Assembly: GCA_038868975.1 (NCBI GenBank)
Contig: JAWCSA010000085.1
Location: 1-7,867 of the forward strand
DNA length: 7,867 nt
Direction: 5' to 3'
From: Nitrososphaerales archaeon
GTDB taxonomy: Archaea; Thermoproteota; Nitrososphaeria; Nitrososphaerales; UBA213
Shown here: positions 1-6,650 of the stretch, piece by piece
Layout: each line of letters opens with the position of its first letter
Position numbering within the stretch: position 1 is the first letter of the stretch
Notes under the pieces: model-generated
Told to the model about the DNA's origin: nothing
The model's input: only the letters and a program-made list of their open reading frames with translations
Databases searched by the model: none
Program-made: the position numbers and the translations under genes

Positions 1-2
1 TA

Positions 3-414
3 GCAGATGCTGCATATGACAGCAATATTACAAGGCTGATGATAGTGAAGAAGTTAAAGATCATACCATTCATACCATTGAATGCAAGGAACTGCAAGGG
101 TAGGAATGAAGAGGAGAAAAGGGCGCAGAGAAAGAAGCTGTGTCTGAAGTTCTATGCAAAGAAATATATCAAGAATTATTGGATAGACCCTGACTCAGCA
201 ATTCGATAAGGAATATGATGCAAGGACATTGTCAGAGCAGGGCTTTTCGATAGGAAAGGGCTCGTTGAATCTCGATTCGTTGAAGCATAGAGGGATAGAA
301 TGGGCAACGTTACATTCTACATGCATATGCATAGTTATGTTATTGGTAGCAAAGACAGCAGTAGAAATAGGAAGACCGGACCTTATGCGGTGCGTGAAAT
401 GCTTCCAAGGATAA
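3..414 (+). pseudogene. C-terminal part of a DDE transposase (IS4/IS5-superfamily, DDE_Tnp_1-like), cut by the window edge and interrupted by a frameshift near 187-209
   Basis: The frame starting at nt 3 reads ADAAYDSNITRLMIVKKLKIIPFIPLNARN...KKYIKNYWIDPDSAIR* (stop 207-209). The frame containing nt 196 is open from 187 and reads QQFDKEYDARTLSEQGFSIGKGSLNLDSLKHRGIEW...VAKTAVEIGRPDLMRCVKCFQG* (stop 412-414). The D-x-A-Y-D-S block (second catalytic D) and the Y-x2-R-x3-E-x2-F-x3-K block (catalytic E) are typical of DDE transposases. Here they sit in different frames. Confidence 0.6.
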
Positions 415-444
415 TTATTCACAGCCCTCTAGATGTGAAAAATC

Positions 445-526
445 CTAGAGAGCACGAGCTAACAATACTCTTCTACGGTATCTGTTTGCATGCACCCTAT
501 CCGCCCATTGTGGGCACTATGCGTGC
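445..526 (-). pseudogene. Possible decayed 5' end of a second IS110-family transposase gene (relic)
   Basis: The minus strand reads cacgcata-gtgcccacaatgggc-ggatagggtgcatgcaaa...agtattgtt. The intact gene start reads cacgcata-ttgtagct-ggactggatgtacacaag...agtatagtt. Matches are an exact 9-mer (518-526 = 1594-1602), 11/18 over the G-L-D-V-H-K codons, and 8/9 at 461-469 vs 1523-1531. All are collinear but carry indels and stops. This feature overlaps module B of the candidate RNA, so the two interpretations compete. Confidence 0.3.
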
Positions 527-585
527 GCTACGAGGCAGCTCCAATCATGGGATCGCGTATACTGACGCATCGAGATCACGGAGCT
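492..585. ncRNA. Candidate structured (bridge-RNA-like) non-coding RNA 3' of the IS110 recombinase. Strand unresolved.
   Basis: Module A: outer stem AGCTCC 537-542 / GGAGCT 580-585; 8+8-nt internal loop (543-550 aatcatgg; 572-579 gagatcac); inner hairpin GAT(c)GCGT 551-558 / ACGCATC 565-571 with a 6-nt loop.
Module B: outer stem GCAC 492-495 / GTGC 523-526; 7+7-nt internal loop (496-502 cctatcc; 516-522 actatgc); inner hairpin GCCCA 503-507 / TGGGC 511-515.
This stretch is locally much more GC-rich than its surroundings. All pairs are Watson-Crick, so the transcribed strand cannot be inferred. Confidence 0.3.
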
Positions 586-634
586 ATTAAATGCCTGATC
601 ATGATTTGTAATTCCCGCATGGGTCATAGTATGG

Positions 635-1606
635 CTATCTGTTCTTCAATACGGAATAGCAACACATCCAGAGCCTTCTAGCTGCAGCTACTTTTGCGAT
701 CTTCTTTCCTTTGCTCTGTGCTATTCTATGATACGCTCTTGTTATCGATGTATCATACTTCAGATGCGTGGTCACACATTCTACAGTTATCCACTTAAGC
801 CATCTAGATCCTTCCTTTGTTATGTTGCCGTATCTCTTCCTCGTACCGCTTGAATTCACAGATGGAACAAGCCCTGCATAAGAGCACAGATGCTCTCCGT
901 CGAAGAATCTCTTTATTTCTCCGATCTCAGATTTTATCAGTAACGCAGTGTAGTAACCTATACCCGGTATAGTCATGAGCAGTTTAGAATCATCATCTTC
1001 TGGAGCCATCCTCGTCAGTTCCAAAGATATCTTTGCTATTTGTTTATCAAGTGCTGCTATCACTGGTAGATAGCTTTCAACAGCATCCATTCTAACAGAG
1101 TGCAGCCATTTGATTCCCTCTGCTGTGAACAATCCGTACGCAGGTTCTTCTACACCATTGTAGAGCAGGCATGCTTTTATCTTAGCCTTGAACTTTGTTC
1201 TCGTCCTTACAAGGAATGCTCTCCTCCTAACTTTCTCCCTTAACTCAGCAACAGTTTCGTCAGGCATGTATGATAACGGCAGCGCATTAAGCCTAGTTAA
1301 CTCCGCAAGTATGGTGCTATCAACCTTATCTGTCTTTATCATGTTTTTGGATATCATCTTTGTCTCCTTTGGGTGTGATACCAGCACGTCACAGCCTTTA
1401 TGCTTCAGTTTCCTGTATATTGGTACAATTGATGTCGAAGCTTCCATCGCTACTCTTTCTATCTTATCTGCATATTCATCAAGAAATATCAGCAATTCCT
1501 TGTTAGGTATTCTCCTTCTGGCAACTATACTCCCATCAGAGCTCATCAAGGTAGCATATGTGTTGTCCTTGTGTACATCCAGTCCAGCTACAATATGCGT
1601 GCTCAC
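635..1606 (-). CDS. IS110-family DEDD transposase/recombinase, apparently intact (323 aa, GTG start)
   Basis: The N-terminus is MSTHIVAGLDVHKDNTYATL (G-x-D-V-H-K, first D of the RuvC-like DEDD domain), followed by VAMEASTS and KTDKVDS acidic blocks. The C-terminal Transposase_20-type block is IPGIGYYTALLIKSEIGEIKRFFDGEHLCSYAGLVPSVNSSGTRKRYGNITKEGSRWLKW, which contains the conserved S-G serine region. There are no internal stops. The only in-frame start near the conserved N-terminus is GTG at 1606-1604. Confidence 0.9.
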   Translation of the reverse strand: MSTHIVAGLDVHKDNTYATLMSSDGSIVARRRIPNKELLIFLDEYADKIERVAMEASTSIVPIYRKLKHKGCDVLVSHPKETKMISKNMIKTDKVDSTILAELTRLNALPLSYMPDETVAELREKVRRRAFLVRTRTKFKAKIKACLLYNGVEEPAYGLFTAEGIKWLHSVRMDAVESYLPVIAALDKQIAKISLELTRMAPEDDDSKLLMTIPGIGYYTALLIKSEIGEIKRFFDGEHLCSYAGLVPSVNSSGTRKRYGNITKEGSRWLKWITVECVTTHLKYDTSITRAYHRIAQSKGKKIAKVAAARRLWMCCYSVLKNR

Positions 1607-1624
1607 AGTATGTCGTGAGCACGC
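1597..1624 (-). promoter_or_regulatory. Perfect 10-bp stem / 8-nt loop hairpin that contains the transposase GTG start codon
   Basis: On the plus strand, GCGTGCTCAC (1597-1606) and GTGAGCACGC (1615-1624) are exact reverse complements separated by agtatgtc. In mRNA sense this is 5'-GCGUGCUCAC-GACAUACU-GUGAGCACGC-3'. The 3' arm begins with the GUG start and covers codons 1-3. The structure is a sequence fact; a regulatory role is inferred. Confidence 0.5.
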
Positions 1625-1656
1625 TGTTCTTATTTTCTTCTCATCGCATCATGGGA

Positions 1657-1677
1657 GATCTAATAACATTTAGTATC
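1657..1677. other. Bulged 7-bp hairpin in the region upstream of the IS110 CDS; structural counterpart of the hairpin at 551-571
   Basis: GAT-CTAA (1657-1663) / TTAG-(t)-ATC (1670-1677) with 6-nt loop taacat. The counterpart at 551-571 is GAT-(c)-GCGT / ACGC-ATC with 6-nt loop atactg. Both sit between the shared blocks atcatggga and tcgaga..tcacg. Confidence 0.5.
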
Positions 1678-1833: not shown

Positions 1834-2688
1834 TTAACGAAACCTCCTACCTAGTATATGAGGCATACTGTATGCCTCATAAATGGTGGTGATTTCGAAC
1901 CCATTTTCCTTCAGCATGTTTGTAACAAACTTGTAATTTTCATCTGAATGAGCTTCTACTATTATTTTATCTGTAATAGAAAGTGCTATTGGAGCCGCGG
2001 TTAACACCTTATCCTCTGCTCCTTCCACATCTATTAATAACCAATCTATCTTGTTGAGAACAAGTGCCTTTACTAGTGAGTCTAGAGTTGTAATTTTCAC
2101 CTGTATGTATTTTTCTGTTCTGCCCTGAGATAAGAGACTATTTCTACCGGAACCGTTGGCACTTATGTAAAGCTTATCAAATCCCTCGCGATCACTTACA
2201 GCAACGTTAATACATTCAACATTTAACTCGTTAAGGCTTACATTTTCAACTAACACTTTAAAAGTTTCAGGATGCGGTTCAACAGCTATAATTCGACCTT
2301 TGTCAATGTATTTACTTGCAAGTAAAACATACTTCCCAACATTAGCCCCTATATTCACAAAATTATCATCTCTCTTTAATTGCTCCTGCAACAGCTTCAC
2401 TATTTCAGGCTCATGATAAGGGCTTAAGAACCCTAGATCTTCAGCACCGGGTCTTAAGTGAACCAAAAATCCATAATACTTCACTCTCGCACCACAAGGC
2501 ATAAAACTTCCAAATGTTAGATTTTTCCTAACAAAATAATCATTTCTTCTTCGTTTTCCTAAAAATAACCTAAGAAATAACCTTAGGGAAAGAAAAGCAA
2601 GCTTCGCATAAAAAATTGAAACTTTATCCTTTACTGTTAAACCTTCCGGTCTAGAAAGCCATTCTAATAGACTTTTAAAACCAACCAT
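1834..2688 (-). CDS. FkbM-family SAM-dependent methyltransferase (Methyltransf_21-like), 284 aa
   Basis: FVNIGANVGKYVLLAS is a glycine-rich SAM loop. IIAVEPHPETFKVLVENV and IDWLLIDVEGAEDKVL (the hallmark D-V-E-G-A-E block of FkbM-family enzymes) are also present. The ATG at 2688-2686 lies 1 nt after the stop of the upstream glycosyltransferase gene (2692-2690). Confidence 0.85.
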   Translation of the reverse strand: MVGFKSLLEWLSRPEGLTVKDKVSIFYAKLAFLSLRLFLRLFLGKRRRNDYFVRKNLTFGSFMPCGARVKYYGFLVHLRPGAEDLGFLSPYHEPEIVKLLQEQLKRDDNFVNIGANVGKYVLLASKYIDKGRIIAVEPHPETFKVLVENVSLNELNVECINVAVSDREGFDKLYISANGSGRNSLLSQGRTEKYIQVKITTLDSLVKALVLNKIDWLLIDVEGAEDKVLTAAPIALSITDKIIVEAHSDENYKFVTNMLKENGFEITTIYEAYSMPHILGRRFR

Positions 2689-2689
2689 T

Positions 2690-3844
2690 TCAGTCGACCT
2701 TGTTTGATTTTACGCCATAAAGTACATCGGTTATCAATTTTTTCATACTTTCTTTAAAAGTAGATTCGGAAAATTTATTTGCAATTTTGTTAAGGGCATT
2801 CCTTTCATACTGGTTGGAATTCATTACCTGCAAGATTATCTGTGACGCATGTTCCAAGTTTCTATAATGATAAATACTAGGGACAAATTCTGTCTGTCCT
2901 CCGTGATTTGGCACAACAGGAATCAATCCAGCAGCCATGGCTTCGACTATTGATATGCCAAAATGTTCGCCTACCATTGTGTGAAGATACGCCTTACTTG
3001 TTGCCATTGCTCCCAACAACGTTTCGAAGCTTGCATTTATCAGCATTGATACGCGTCCGCGCACCTCCTCTTCATTTGCAATTTTCAATAACTTCTGATA
3101 ATAAGGATAATTCGCCGGTATCAAACTTCCTATAATCTGCAGCTTTATGTTACGGGGTAGCATTTTTATGATCTTAATAGTGTTCTCAAGTTTCTTTTCG
3201 GGTGTATACCTCGATACGACTAGTATTTTATCCACCCTATTATTTGAGTTAAGGACCTGCGAAAATCTTTCCACATCAACAGGAGGGTATATTATGATTG
3301 GCTCAATATCAGGATAAATCTTCTTTATTGCCTCCTTGCTGAAATTGGAGTTGGTTAAAATCGTACCTCTCTTCATACCATAGTCCATCAATGTTTCCGT
3401 AAGATACTTGTATGGTTTGAAGTACGCCTTCCAAAAGAGTGAGTTCTGATACTTGCTTGGATATTCTTTCAACATTAATGCCAAGACAGGAAAATGCAGG
3501 TAGGCAATGTATGGAACACCAGCAGGTAAATAGTATGGAAGGACATCTCCATGCGTGTTGATCACTATATCAGCGTCTCTAACTCTTAGAGCTGGAATTA
3601 TTGTAAACAATCGCTGGTATATCCCAAAGTATTTGAATTTGAATGGAAAGAGTGCTATGACTCTGTCAACCTCAATCTTACGGCCGTACGCCTTTTCTAT
3701 CGCTTCAAATTCTGGTTTTTGAGAAGTTACAAGTTCAACTGTGAAGCCCATATCCTTCAGTAATTCTATCGTATTAACGGCGACTCTTTCCCCTCCACCC
3801 CTACTGTTAAGGTTATGATGAATTACAGCAGCTTTCAATTGCAT
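2690..3844 (-). CDS. GT4-family (GT-B fold, Glycos_transf_1) glycosyltransferase with ALG11-like N-terminus, 384 aa
   Basis: The C-terminal block is EHFGISIVEAMAAGLIPVVPNHGGQTEF (E-x7-E retaining-GT4 signature). The N-terminal HHNLNSRGGGERVAVNT and AYLHFP resemble the ALG11 / alpha-1,2-mannosyltransferase N-domain. ATG start at 3844. Confidence 0.9.
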   Translation of the reverse strand: MQLKAAVIHHNLNSRGGGERVAVNTIELLKDMGFTVELVTSQKPEFEAIEKAYGRKIEVDRVIALFPFKFKYFGIYQRLFTIIPALRVRDADIVINTHGDVLPYYLPAGVPYIAYLHFPVLALMLKEYPSKYQNSLFWKAYFKPYKYLTETLMDYGMKRGTILTNSNFSKEAIKKIYPDIEPIIIYPPVDVERFSQVLNSNNRVDKILVVSRYTPEKKLENTIKIIKMLPRNIKLQIIGSLIPANYPYYQKLLKIANEEEVRGRVSMLINASFETLLGAMATSKAYLHTMVGEHFGISIVEAMAAGLIPVVPNHGGQTEFVPSIYHYRNLEHASQIILQVMNSNQYERNALNKIANKFSESTFKESMKKLITDVLYGVKSNKVD

Positions 3845-3921
3845 ATCAATTATTCCATTCCAACCTTAAAGGGCTCCCCGAAGATAAACTATACCGCATG
3901 TCCTAAATTCGTGAGCTAACA

Positions 3922-3962
3922 TTACAGAAGAATTGTAGCCATTAGTGGAATATTTTCTGTAA
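3922..3962. repeat. 8-bp inverted repeat TTACAGAA / TTCTGTAA with 25-nt spacer in the divergent intergenic region
   Basis: 3922-3929 ttacagaa and 3955-3962 ttctgtaa are exact reverse complements. The repeat lies between the divergently transcribed glycosyltransferase and dehydrogenase operons. Confidence 0.8.
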
Positions 3963-3983
3963 CAAGAGGAATATAATTGAGCC

Positions 3984-4139
3984 ATGTTCTACATATTGAA
4001 CCTATCCCTCTACTTGCTTTCATGCGTATGCGTTCTAATTTCTTTATGTACGAACCCCATGCCTTCTTACAGGTATGTTCCTTTGTCTAACCAAGTTATG
4101 AGGCTCTTTAATATGTTTAGGAAGGGAGTTAACAGATAA
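3984..4139 (+). CDS. Hypothetical 51-aa hydrophobic small protein (below the ORF-track length cut-off)
   Basis: ATG 3984 to TAA 4137-4139 encodes MFYILNLSLYLLSCVCVLISLCTNPMPSYRYVPLSNQVMRLFNMFRKGVNR. It has one predicted transmembrane-like N-terminal stretch and a basic tail. A TATA-like aatatttt sits about 30 nt upstream. I recognise no homology, and it could be a chance ORF in an AT-rich spacer. Confidence 0.2.
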   Translation: MFYILNLSLYLLSCVCVLISLCTNPMPSYRYVPLSNQVMRLFNMFRKGVNR

Positions 4140-4210
4140 GGAGCTAGTCAAATGACTATATTGTAGACGCTATGCATATTAACCAATATATCTGCCCAAA
4201 GGTTTGAAGT

Positions 4211-5584
4211 GTGTTGGCGTTACCAAAATCAGGCATATTCCAGTTAAGCAAAAAGCAACGCGCAATATACGTTCAAAAGAGAAAACCTAGAGTTTGTGTT
4301 ATAGGTCTAGGGAGGGTTGGTCTTCCAGCTGCTGTGGCGTTTGCCATTAAGGGATTCTATACCATAGGTGTTGATATCAACCGCTCATTGGTATACCATG
4401 TGAACACAGGCAAGTTGAACTTTATAGATGAACCGGGGTTGGGAAAGTTGCTTAAGCGTGTCAAAAAGGGATTTCTGAATGCTACCACTAATATAAGAAG
4501 CGCAATAGCTGAAAGCGAAATTATTCTTCTTTGTCTACCAACTCCATTAAATATTGAAACAAAGGAAGCAGATTATTCACATTTAGAATCTGCTTGTAAG
4601 GAATTTAGCTCTCTAAATAAAGGATCTATGATCTGTGTAGAAAGCACCGTCTCTCCTGGTATTGTAGAAAATCTAGTTATACCATTAATAGAAAAAGTAT
4701 CTGGTTTGAGGGCTGGTATAGACTTTGGTATAGCAAGTTGTCCCGAAAGAGTAAACCCTTCATCCATCGCAAGGGATCTCTATAACGTCCCACGAGTAAT
4801 AGGTGGCATGAACGATAAGAGTACAGATTTGGCTGCTTTCATTTACGAAAAAGTTTTCGGAGTGGAGATAACTAGGGTTAGAAACTGCATGACTGCCAAT
4901 GCTTCAAAACTTGCAGAAAACGTTTTCAGATATGTTAACATTGCATATGTTACAGAACTAGCATTGCTGTTCGAAAGAATGGGAATAGACGTTCGTGAGG
5001 TTGTTAAAGCATGTGCAACAAAATACAACTTTGTTCCACATTACCCCGGTGTTGGCGTTGGTGGTTCCTGCCTGCCTGTTAATACATACCAGCTATTGCA
5101 TACTGCAGCTATGAGCAAGGCCGATCTGCACTTGCTAGACGTAGCGAGGAGAATTAATGAGAATATGCCATTGCGTATAGTTCAGCATGTTGAGCAATTG
5201 CTGAGTCGTGTAGGTAAATCACTAACCAATTCAACAGTAACAGTCCTTGGTGTAACCTACAAACCAAATGTAACAGATACGAGAATAAGTCCTGTCGAGG
5301 TGATAATACGGGAATTGAAGGACAGAGGTGCAAAGGTTAAGGTTTATGACCCATTTGTAGAAGGCGAAATATTTTCATGCAGAGTTGAGAAAGATTATGC
5401 AGAAGCGGTCGATGGATCCGATGTAATCGTCATAGGAACTCCTCATGACAAATTCAGAAACATGAACTTCAAGGTAGTAATAGAAAGAATGAACTCTCCA
5501 GTAATATTTGATCCAACGGGTTTCTTAGCAAAGAAATTGAGAAAGTACAAGGTAACATATGACAGTATAGGTGAAGATCCGTAG
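4211..5584 (+). CDS. Nucleotide-sugar 6-dehydrogenase of the UDP-glucose/GDP-mannose dehydrogenase family, WecC/WbpA-like (UDP-N-acetyl-hexosamine dehydrogenase clade), 457 aa
   Basis: N-terminal Rossmann motif VCVIGLGRVGLPAAVAFAIKGFYTIGVDIN; catalytic cysteine block GVGVGGSCLPVN; C-terminal UDP-binding block VTVLGVTYKPNVTDTRISP. The only in-frame starts before the Rossmann motif are GTG 4211 and TTG 4214. Confidence 0.9.
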   Translation: MLALPKSGIFQLSKKQRAIYVQKRKPRVCVIGLGRVGLPAAVAFAIKGFYTIGVDINRSLVYHVNTGKLNFIDEPGLGKLLKRVKKGFLNATTNIRSAIAESEIILLCLPTPLNIETKEADYSHLESACKEFSSLNKGSMICVESTVSPGIVENLVIPLIEKVSGLRAGIDFGIASCPERVNPSSIARDLYNVPRVIGGMNDKSTDLAAFIYEKVFGVEITRVRNCMTANASKLAENVFRYVNIAYVTELALLFERMGIDVREVVKACATKYNFVPHYPGVGVGGSCLPVNTYQLLHTAAMSKADLHLLDVARRINENMPLRIVQHVEQLLSRVGKSLTNSTVTVLGVTYKPNVTDTRISPVEVIIRELKDRGAKVKVYDPFVEGEIFSCRVEKDYAEAVDGSDVIVIGTPHDKFRNMNFKVVIERMNSPVIFDPTGFLAKKLRKYKVTYDSIGEDP

Positions 5585-5597
5585 GTTAGTGCTTGCA

Positions 5598-6650
5598 ATG
5601 AAGTTCTGGTTTGACATTCTCACACCCAAACAGGTGAACTTTTTCAAGCCTGTAGTAGATGAGCTGAAGAAGAAGCATGATGTTTTATGTACAACACGTA
5701 GTTACAGGGAAGTTAAGGAACTTGCGCGGATAAAGAATTTTGATCTGCTTTCAGTGGGAAAACACGGCGGTGAATCATTACTTACCAAGTTACGCACTAG
5801 TGCTAATAGAGTGGTGAGGTTAATAGAAATAATTGATGAATTCAAACCAGACGCACTGGTCAGCTTAGCCTCACCAGAGGCATCTAGAGTGGCATTCGGT
5901 TTGGGCATAAAACACATAGGATTTTGCGATGCTCCACATGCAGAAGCTGTGTGTAGGCTATCGATCCCCCTTATGAGCTTGCTCATGCATCCAGCAATAA
6001 TTCCCAGGAGGGAGTTTATGAAATACGGTATTGAACGAAAACGGCTGGTTCGCTACAGAGCAATAGACCCCGCAATGTGGTTGCGTGATGGCGTGAAACA
6101 GATCTACAGACACGGTGATCTAGGACTGGATCCCTCAAGAAAGGTAATAACATTCAGATTTGAAGAATCACAGGCGGCCTATCTACGAGCTGTTGATAAA
6201 TCTATTTCCTTCAAAATGCTAAAATCTTTGGTCAATACATTTGATCATAATATTGTTATTCTAAGCCGTTATGCTGATCAGATAGAGGTATTGAAGCGCG
6301 AGTTTGCAAGTAAAGCAACAGTTATGGAAAGAGTTATTGATGGCACATCCTTACTAATGCTGTCTGACGTTTTCATTGGTTCAGGAGGCACTATGAACTG
6401 GGAATGTGCTCTGATGGGTATACCGAATGTATCTTACACCCAAATGAAATACCATGTAAACGAGTACCTGATAAAGAAAGGGTTGATAGTTAGGTGCAGG
6501 GATGCGTCGCTATTAATCAAACTTGTGAAAAAGATGCTTTTCGATGACTCTTATAGAGATAATTTAAAACAAAAAAGCAAAAATGAACTCGCGGGAATGG
6601 AGGATATTAAGAAAAAGACCATTGATATCTTGGAATATAAAGTAAACTAA
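5598..6650 (+). CDS. DUF354-family protein (predicted GT-B fold, epimerase/glycosyltransferase-like), about 350 aa
   Basis: MKFWFDILTPKQVNFFKPVVDELKKKHDVLCTTRSYREV...SVGKHGG matches my recollection of the conserved DUF354 N-terminus (M-K-I-W-x-D-I-x-x-P-x-x-V-x-F-F-K-P). The C-terminal FIGSGGTMNWECALMGIPNV resembles the G-G-x-x-x-E-x-x-x-x-G-x-P block of WecB/MurG-type GT-B proteins. The ORF track begins at GTG 5571, overlapping the upstream gene. ATG 5598, 13 nt after the dehydrogenase stop, fits the family N-terminus better. Confidence 0.7.
   Translation: MKFWFDILTPKQVNFFKPVVDELKKKHDVLCTTRSYREVKELARIKNFDLLSVGKHGGESLLTKLRTSANRVVRLIEIIDEFKPDALVSLASPEASRVAFGLGIKHIGFCDAPHAEAVCRLSIPLMSLLMHPAIIPRREFMKYGIERKRLVRYRAIDPAMWLRDGVKQIYRHGDLGLDPSRKVITFRFEESQAAYLRAVDKSISFKMLKSLVNTFDHNIVILSRYADQIEVLKREFASKATVMERVIDGTSLLMLSDVFIGSGGTMNWECALMGIPNVSYTQMKYHVNEYLIKKGLIVRCRDASLLIKLVKKMLFDDSYRDNLKQKSKNELAGMEDIKKKTIDILEYKVN

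Follow-up and report, generated by a model that had tools for sequence, protein, structure and literature searches.

A probable IS1111-type bridge RNA downstream of an archaeal IS110-family transposase

Introduction

Bridge RNA–recombinase systems have been described for IS621 and ISCro4 (Durrant et al. 2024, PMC11208160; Hiraizumi et al. 2024, PMC11208158; PDB 8wt6 and 9t56). SeekRNAs are known from the IS1111-family elements ISEc11, ISKpn4, ISPa11 and ISPst6, where the RNA region follows the transposase gene and the top-strand guide comes before the bottom-strand one (Siddiquee et al. 2024, PMC11187229). The subterminal repeats of IS1111 elements are set in from the left end by 7 bp and from the right end by 3 bp, and the guides are naturally reprogrammed among relatives (PMC11187229); a short left end, a long right end and this guide order are published for IS1111 seekRNAs (PMC11187229; PMC11208160). 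Some elements are aimed at other mobile DNA: the targets are IS3-family transposase genes in the case of ISEc21 (PMC11187229) and the terminal repeats of Tn21 in that of IS4321/IS5075 (Partridge and Hall 2003).

Here we analyze a window of 7,867 nucleotides from a Nitrososphaerales archaeon, in which the first-pass annotation had described two hairpins, D (551–571) and U (1657–1677), on either side of an IS110-family transposase gene. We conclude that the inner stem of D very probably belongs to an IS1111-type bridge RNA, or seekRNA (~487–590, minus strand), encoded downstream of the transposase, in which it forms the stem-loop that caps the target-binding loop, and that U is an unrelated chance fold.

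The locus resembles IS621 (PMC11208158) in having two predicted loops, each made up of a stem, a guide, a stem-loop and a second guide, and it resembles both IS621 and ISCro4 in its 2-nt core, its handshake-type bases and its DEDD plus catalytic serine residues. However, the IS621 RNA is located upstream, with its guides in the reverse order, whereas that of the archaeal element lies downstream; the archaeal core is TG or CG, unlike that of IS621/ISCro4, and the protein similarity is remote (E 9e-10 and 5e-8). With ISEc11, ISKpn4, ISPa11 and ISPst6 the locus has in common the position of the RNA, the guide order, natural guide reprogramming and, in its homologues and at its own left end, the 7 bp/3 bp placement of the repeats. 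It differs from these seekRNA elements in its archaeal, amoA-bearing host and in relatives that are mostly from Bathyarchaeia, and from IS1111 elements in general in that its family has repeats of ~8–9 bp rather than the usual 11–13 bp, with the present copy having no intact right terminus.

Results

The transposase gene (635–1606, minus strand) encodes a 323-aa IS110-family DEDD transposase, or bridge recombinase (Pfam PF01548 and PF02371), that is 66% identical to the protein P0004. The DEDD RuvC-like domain and the Tnp20 domain with its catalytic serine, which together define the IS110/IS1111 family, are both present, and residues D10, E55, D93, D96 and S249 are invariant in 36 homologues. 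An alignment-based scan recovered 64 loci, mostly from Bathyarchaeia and mostly 45–67% identical, and separate searches added two closer contigs; single-protein scans of genome and metagenome contigs returned 0 and 1 locus, and viral contigs held no related locus. The host genome encodes archaeal AmoA, its DNA is found in hot-spring metagenome runs, with no RNA run listed among those that contain it, and the element is single-copy in the genome, with no second copy or empty site. Contigs from four DNA runs, possibly the source samples, yielded no joints or variants, a result that is not evidence of absence. Rfam returned nothing relevant in the window.

Homologues share sequence inwards from a TG or CG located ~45 bp before the start codon and diverge outside it, while each of their right ends closes with the inverted repeat and, after a further three bases, that core again (39/39). 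Their subterminal repeats lie 7 bp (left) and 3 bp (right) inside the ends and are 8–9 bp long with 0–1 mismatch. The left end of the present copy (1637–1651, minus strand) agrees with this arrangement, comprising the core TG (1650–1651), five donor bases (1645–1649) and an 8-bp subterminal inverted repeat (1637–1644). With 45 bp between the left end and the start codon, a right end of about 200 bp, and a top-strand guide that precedes the bottom-strand guide, the element has the short left end, long downstream non-coding region and guide order of IS1111. In the closest subfamily (L036, L037, L038, L088 and L091), the elements insert beside a common sequence resembling the complement of a tRNA 3' end.

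The present copy looks damaged because it combines a premature stop, an altered guide base and the lack of an intact right end, and it is probably immobile or impaired. A TAG at 635–637 interrupts the transposase frame, which on read-through runs 11 more codons to 599; the transposases of relatives are mostly 334–335 aa, and the premature TAG removes a nearly invariant motif. The core-pairing base of the RNA at 570, next to the 5' guide, is A in the present copy and C in nearly all homologues. What is left of the right end (430–486, minus strand) contains a possible degenerate subterminal repeat (433–441), with no canonical three-base spacer and core terminus and no right flank. It is abutted or interrupted by a frameshifted DDE-transposase insertion sequence (1–429, plus strand; terminal repeat at 414–429), inferred from motif and terminal inverted repeat to be IS5-like, which has many copies in the genome and matches DDE_Tnp_1 below the cut-off (E 6e-4, extended contig). 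Together with about 30 other places in this genome, 1–429 belongs to a family of DDE elements and MITE-like ends that have a 16-bp terminal repeat in common, and most of these are near contig ends. Further into the window, positions 1834–6650 hold a surface-glycan cluster (FkbM methyltransferase, GT4 glycosyltransferase, UDP-sugar dehydrogenase and DUF354), with the pile of insertion sequences at its edge.

To resolve the region that follows the transposase stop codon we aligned it across 45 sequences, in which it separates into two loop modules. The layout is that of a bridge RNA: one internal loop has guides matching the target, the other has guides matching the donor, and an inner stem covaries in each. 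The putative target-binding loop (537–585, minus strand; aligned with 44 homologous right ends) is closed by an outer stem pairing 580–585 with 537–542, and has a fold z of about −2.3 to −2.6. Inside it lies the part of D that is real, an inner stem-loop (554–569, minus strand) that RNAalifold predicts as a consensus helix, pairing 565–568 with 555–558 around a loop at 559–564. In the 45 aligned relatives this inner stem is paired in 98.7% of cells and shows 29 double changes, counts that treat related sequences as independent, and its values were reached by 0 of 500 shuffles; one position shows four different Watson-Crick pairs across homologues, and control helices slid along the same region were paired in only 21–58% of cells. 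The stem is extended by an invariant U.G pair (569.554), so that the C at 554 drawn as a bulge in the first-pass annotation is one of its partners. The suggestion that the hairpins might belong to a guide RNA scaffold thus holds for the inner four base pairs of D, which covary in homologues, and fails for U. It does not extend to the three closing pairs of D (GAT/ATC), said to be identical in the two flanks, which are only 37% paired in homologues because guide bases make up two of the 3' partners and one of the 5' partners.

The guides lie on either side of the inner stem. The 5' target guide (571–578, minus strand) is the complement of the right flank; the other side (544–553, minus strand) consists of the 3' target guide (548–553), the core TG (546–547) and two handshake-type bases (544–545), and is the source of a 9-mer shared with the upstream flank. 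In 37 homologues, the last 6 bases of the 5' guide agree with the complementary right-flank sequence at 4.76 of 6 positions, compared with 2.24 in permutations; for the present copy, whose own right flank is out of sight, this guide was checked through homologues only. The 3' guide matches the left flank at 5.18 of 6 positions, compared with 2.31 in permutations, across 34 loci, a set that omits L066, whose two ends apparently derive from different elements, and L036, which has a small left-end deletion. The observed matches for both guides were reached by 0 of 20000 permutations, a count that overstates independence given that the homologues are related. Identity between RNA and flank in the 34 loci is 0.91–1.0 at positions −1 to −5, falls to 0.44 at −6 and is 0.09–0.47 beyond. 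The core, TG or CG, covaries in both loops and both ends, with RNA and ends agreeing in 34/34 left and 39/39 right cases. Among the homologues there are 11 different natural guide/target classes. Two individual loci depart from the rest: in L066 the left flank and the guide belong to different target classes, which suggests a recombinant or misassembled element, and the frameshifted relative L086 (G013:C13) has a 4-nt duplication within its 3' target guide.

The second module is the putative donor-binding loop (487–530, minus strand), with a 5' guide (519–522), an inner stem pairing 512–516 with 502–506 and a 3' guide (493–501); its helices are recovered in the consensus fold. Its 5' guide is the complement of the left-end bases in 26/34 loci, and in 37/38 the nucleotide that follows the core is the same as the first one of the right flank. 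On this comparison, the second loop appears to read the element's own ends. The predicted RNA secondary structure, the guide–target and guide–donor covariation and the element boundaries are therefore established at the level of aligned sequences.

By analogy with published systems, the bridge RNA would be transcribed and bound by the transposase, and a circular form of the element would serve as donor. As in the work on IS621 and ISEc11, the RNA–transposase complex would pair the donor circle with the target and recombine both at the core. The covariation of the inner stem shows that it keeps the two single-stranded target guides apart, and the second loop would read the joined ends of the element.

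On the upstream side, the conserved hairpin is one in the left end that spans the transposase start codon (1597–1624, minus strand; start codon 1604–1606) and has 10 pairs here. Its 5-bp core is paired in all 27 distinct left ends from homologues and includes one full compensatory change; a sixth pair is T-A, A-T or C-G by lineage. This hairpin probably damps translation. A literature search found nothing specific on it, though it may still be described.

U lies elsewhere, in flanking DNA at −6 to −26 from the core (1657–1677, plus strand), and starts where guide matching stops. In 33 homologous flanks the register of U retains a mean of 2.1 of 7 pairs, and the best hairpin found near the core has on average 4.35 pairs, compared with 4.39 after shuffling. 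Hairpins of at least 7 pairs occur in 3/33 of these flanks against the 4% expected, a small and non-significant excess; such hairpins are found in 4.0% of random genomic 35-mers. As plus-strand DNA, U is predicted to be unfolded, and it is absent from the predicted fold of 1640–1695 on the transposase strand. We conclude that U is a chance fold. A role for U as a terminator was considered and rejected.

How, then, did the two hairpins come to look alike? The letters and coordinates given for D and U are correct, and each can be drawn as a stem of 7 Watson-Crick pairs with a single bulge and a loop of 6 nt. Taken singly, neither is above chance: the fold energy of D (−4.9 kcal/mol) was equalled in 25/200 shuffles and that of U (−2.2 kcal/mol) in 16/200. 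The first-pass annotation read the pair as diverged paralogous copies of a selected hairpin, kept by four compensatory changes, and the common architecture, together with two short blocks in the same order in both flanks, speaks for that reading. The blocks, however, do not place the hairpins in the same register. D starts at position 8 of the first shared block and U at position 10, so that they are 2 nt out of register; D ends within the second block and U ends 4 nt before it, a displacement of 6 nt; the spacing between the blocks is 17 nt in D and 25 nt in U; and the bulge is in the 5' arm of D (554) and in the 3' arm of U (1674). Because of the shifted register, the unequal spacing and the bulges on opposite arms, the supposedly compensatory pairs are not homologous columns, and the four changes are an artefact of the comparison. 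No helix was kept between the flanks, since the segments are not homologous and do not pair in the same columns, and the core at 1650–1651 leaves U outside the element altogether, the circumstance that the annotation itself had named as telling against its proposal. Nor do the blocks need common descent. Read from the alignment, the first is the 3' guide spelling flank, core and two donor bases, and this 9-mer occurs in both flanks because the guide sequence copies that of the insertion site. The second is most likely chance, because in homologues the 5' guide does not reappear on the upstream side (best match 4.06, compared with 4.06 in permutations) and matches of at least 7 bases between the D and U regions are not clearly in excess (5, guide block included, against 2.5 in shuffles; P about 0.10). 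With U unconserved and the closing pairs of D mostly unpaired in homologues as well, we consider descent from a common hairpin almost certainly incorrect.

A different role for U would follow if the transposase needed a DNA hairpin beside its target, recognizing sequence plus structure as suggested for ISPpu10-type elements. U does directly adjoin the guide-matched bases, the second shared block (1682–1688) and the predicted right flank would together make an inverted repeat, and 4/28 reconstituted empty sites fold at z below −2. The median fold z of the reconstituted sites is nevertheless +0.07, and both the predicted unfolded state of U as DNA and the absence of the 5' guide upstream in homologues count against such a requirement, which we regard as very unlikely.

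The bridge-RNA reading can be extended to the identity of the target. The target of the guides may be the subterminal repeat at the right end of another IS1111-type element of this genome, here called B, with the present copy inserted into a B end; we judge the chances of this to be about even, and it would add to the bridge-RNA explanation and is no alternative to it. The left target flank read by the 3' guide (1652–1657, minus strand; 1652–1656 exact), taken with the core, is identical to the last 8 bases of B in opposite orientation; on this reading 1650–1657 would be the end of B itself, and the DNA past it, U included, would be that of the host. Guides and terminal repeat of B agree at 14/15 bases. 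A 15-mer query that joins the left flank as observed, the core, and the right flank as predicted from the guide matches, at no more than 1 mismatch in the whole genome, solely six B right ends (G000 C9:498–512, C27:162–176, C39:15416–15430, C102, C104 and C117), and shuffled or random 15-mers landed in any repeat end in 0.13–0.39% of trials. The observed flank agrees with 5/6 B copies for 4 bases past the guide, the B terminus is conserved up to exactly the same base in a second genome (G004 C22:1131–1145), and the handshake base of the donor loop independently predicts C as the first right-flank base. Against this stand the post hoc nature of the reading and its reliance on a single insertion, the one guide position that mismatches B, the fact that all six B ends are seen unoccupied, and the single flank shared by four of the five matching copies. 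In addition, the far side, where the body of B is expected, is unassembled, and the far side of the DDE element is not reached. Two exact pattern matches in other genomes (G082 and G086) are not at IS110 ends.

In B itself only ~60 nt follow the stop codon and the left end appears to be short, which leaves no room for an obvious two-loop guide RNA, and no guide RNA of B was identified. The right flank is identical in 4/6 B copies, and the G004 copy is apparently internally deleted.

Discussion

The covariation between flanks from which this analysis set out is an artefact and carries no significance itself. The mechanism proposed for the element is a known one, and comparison of homologues gives good support for a putative archaeal family of IS1111-type bridge RNAs. 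This family has at least 11 natural guide/target pairs, two core types and hosts that include hot-spring archaea, and may be a usable source of recombinases and of guide-length rules.

ISEc21 and IS4321/IS5075, as IS110/IS1111 elements aimed at other mobile elements, provide precedent for an insertion into B. Unlike in those cases, the putative target here would be the donor end of another IS110-family element. If this is true, one RNA-guided element inserts into, and probably immobilizes, the donor end of a relative, and the locus would represent a case of RNA-guided competition between bridge-RNA elements.
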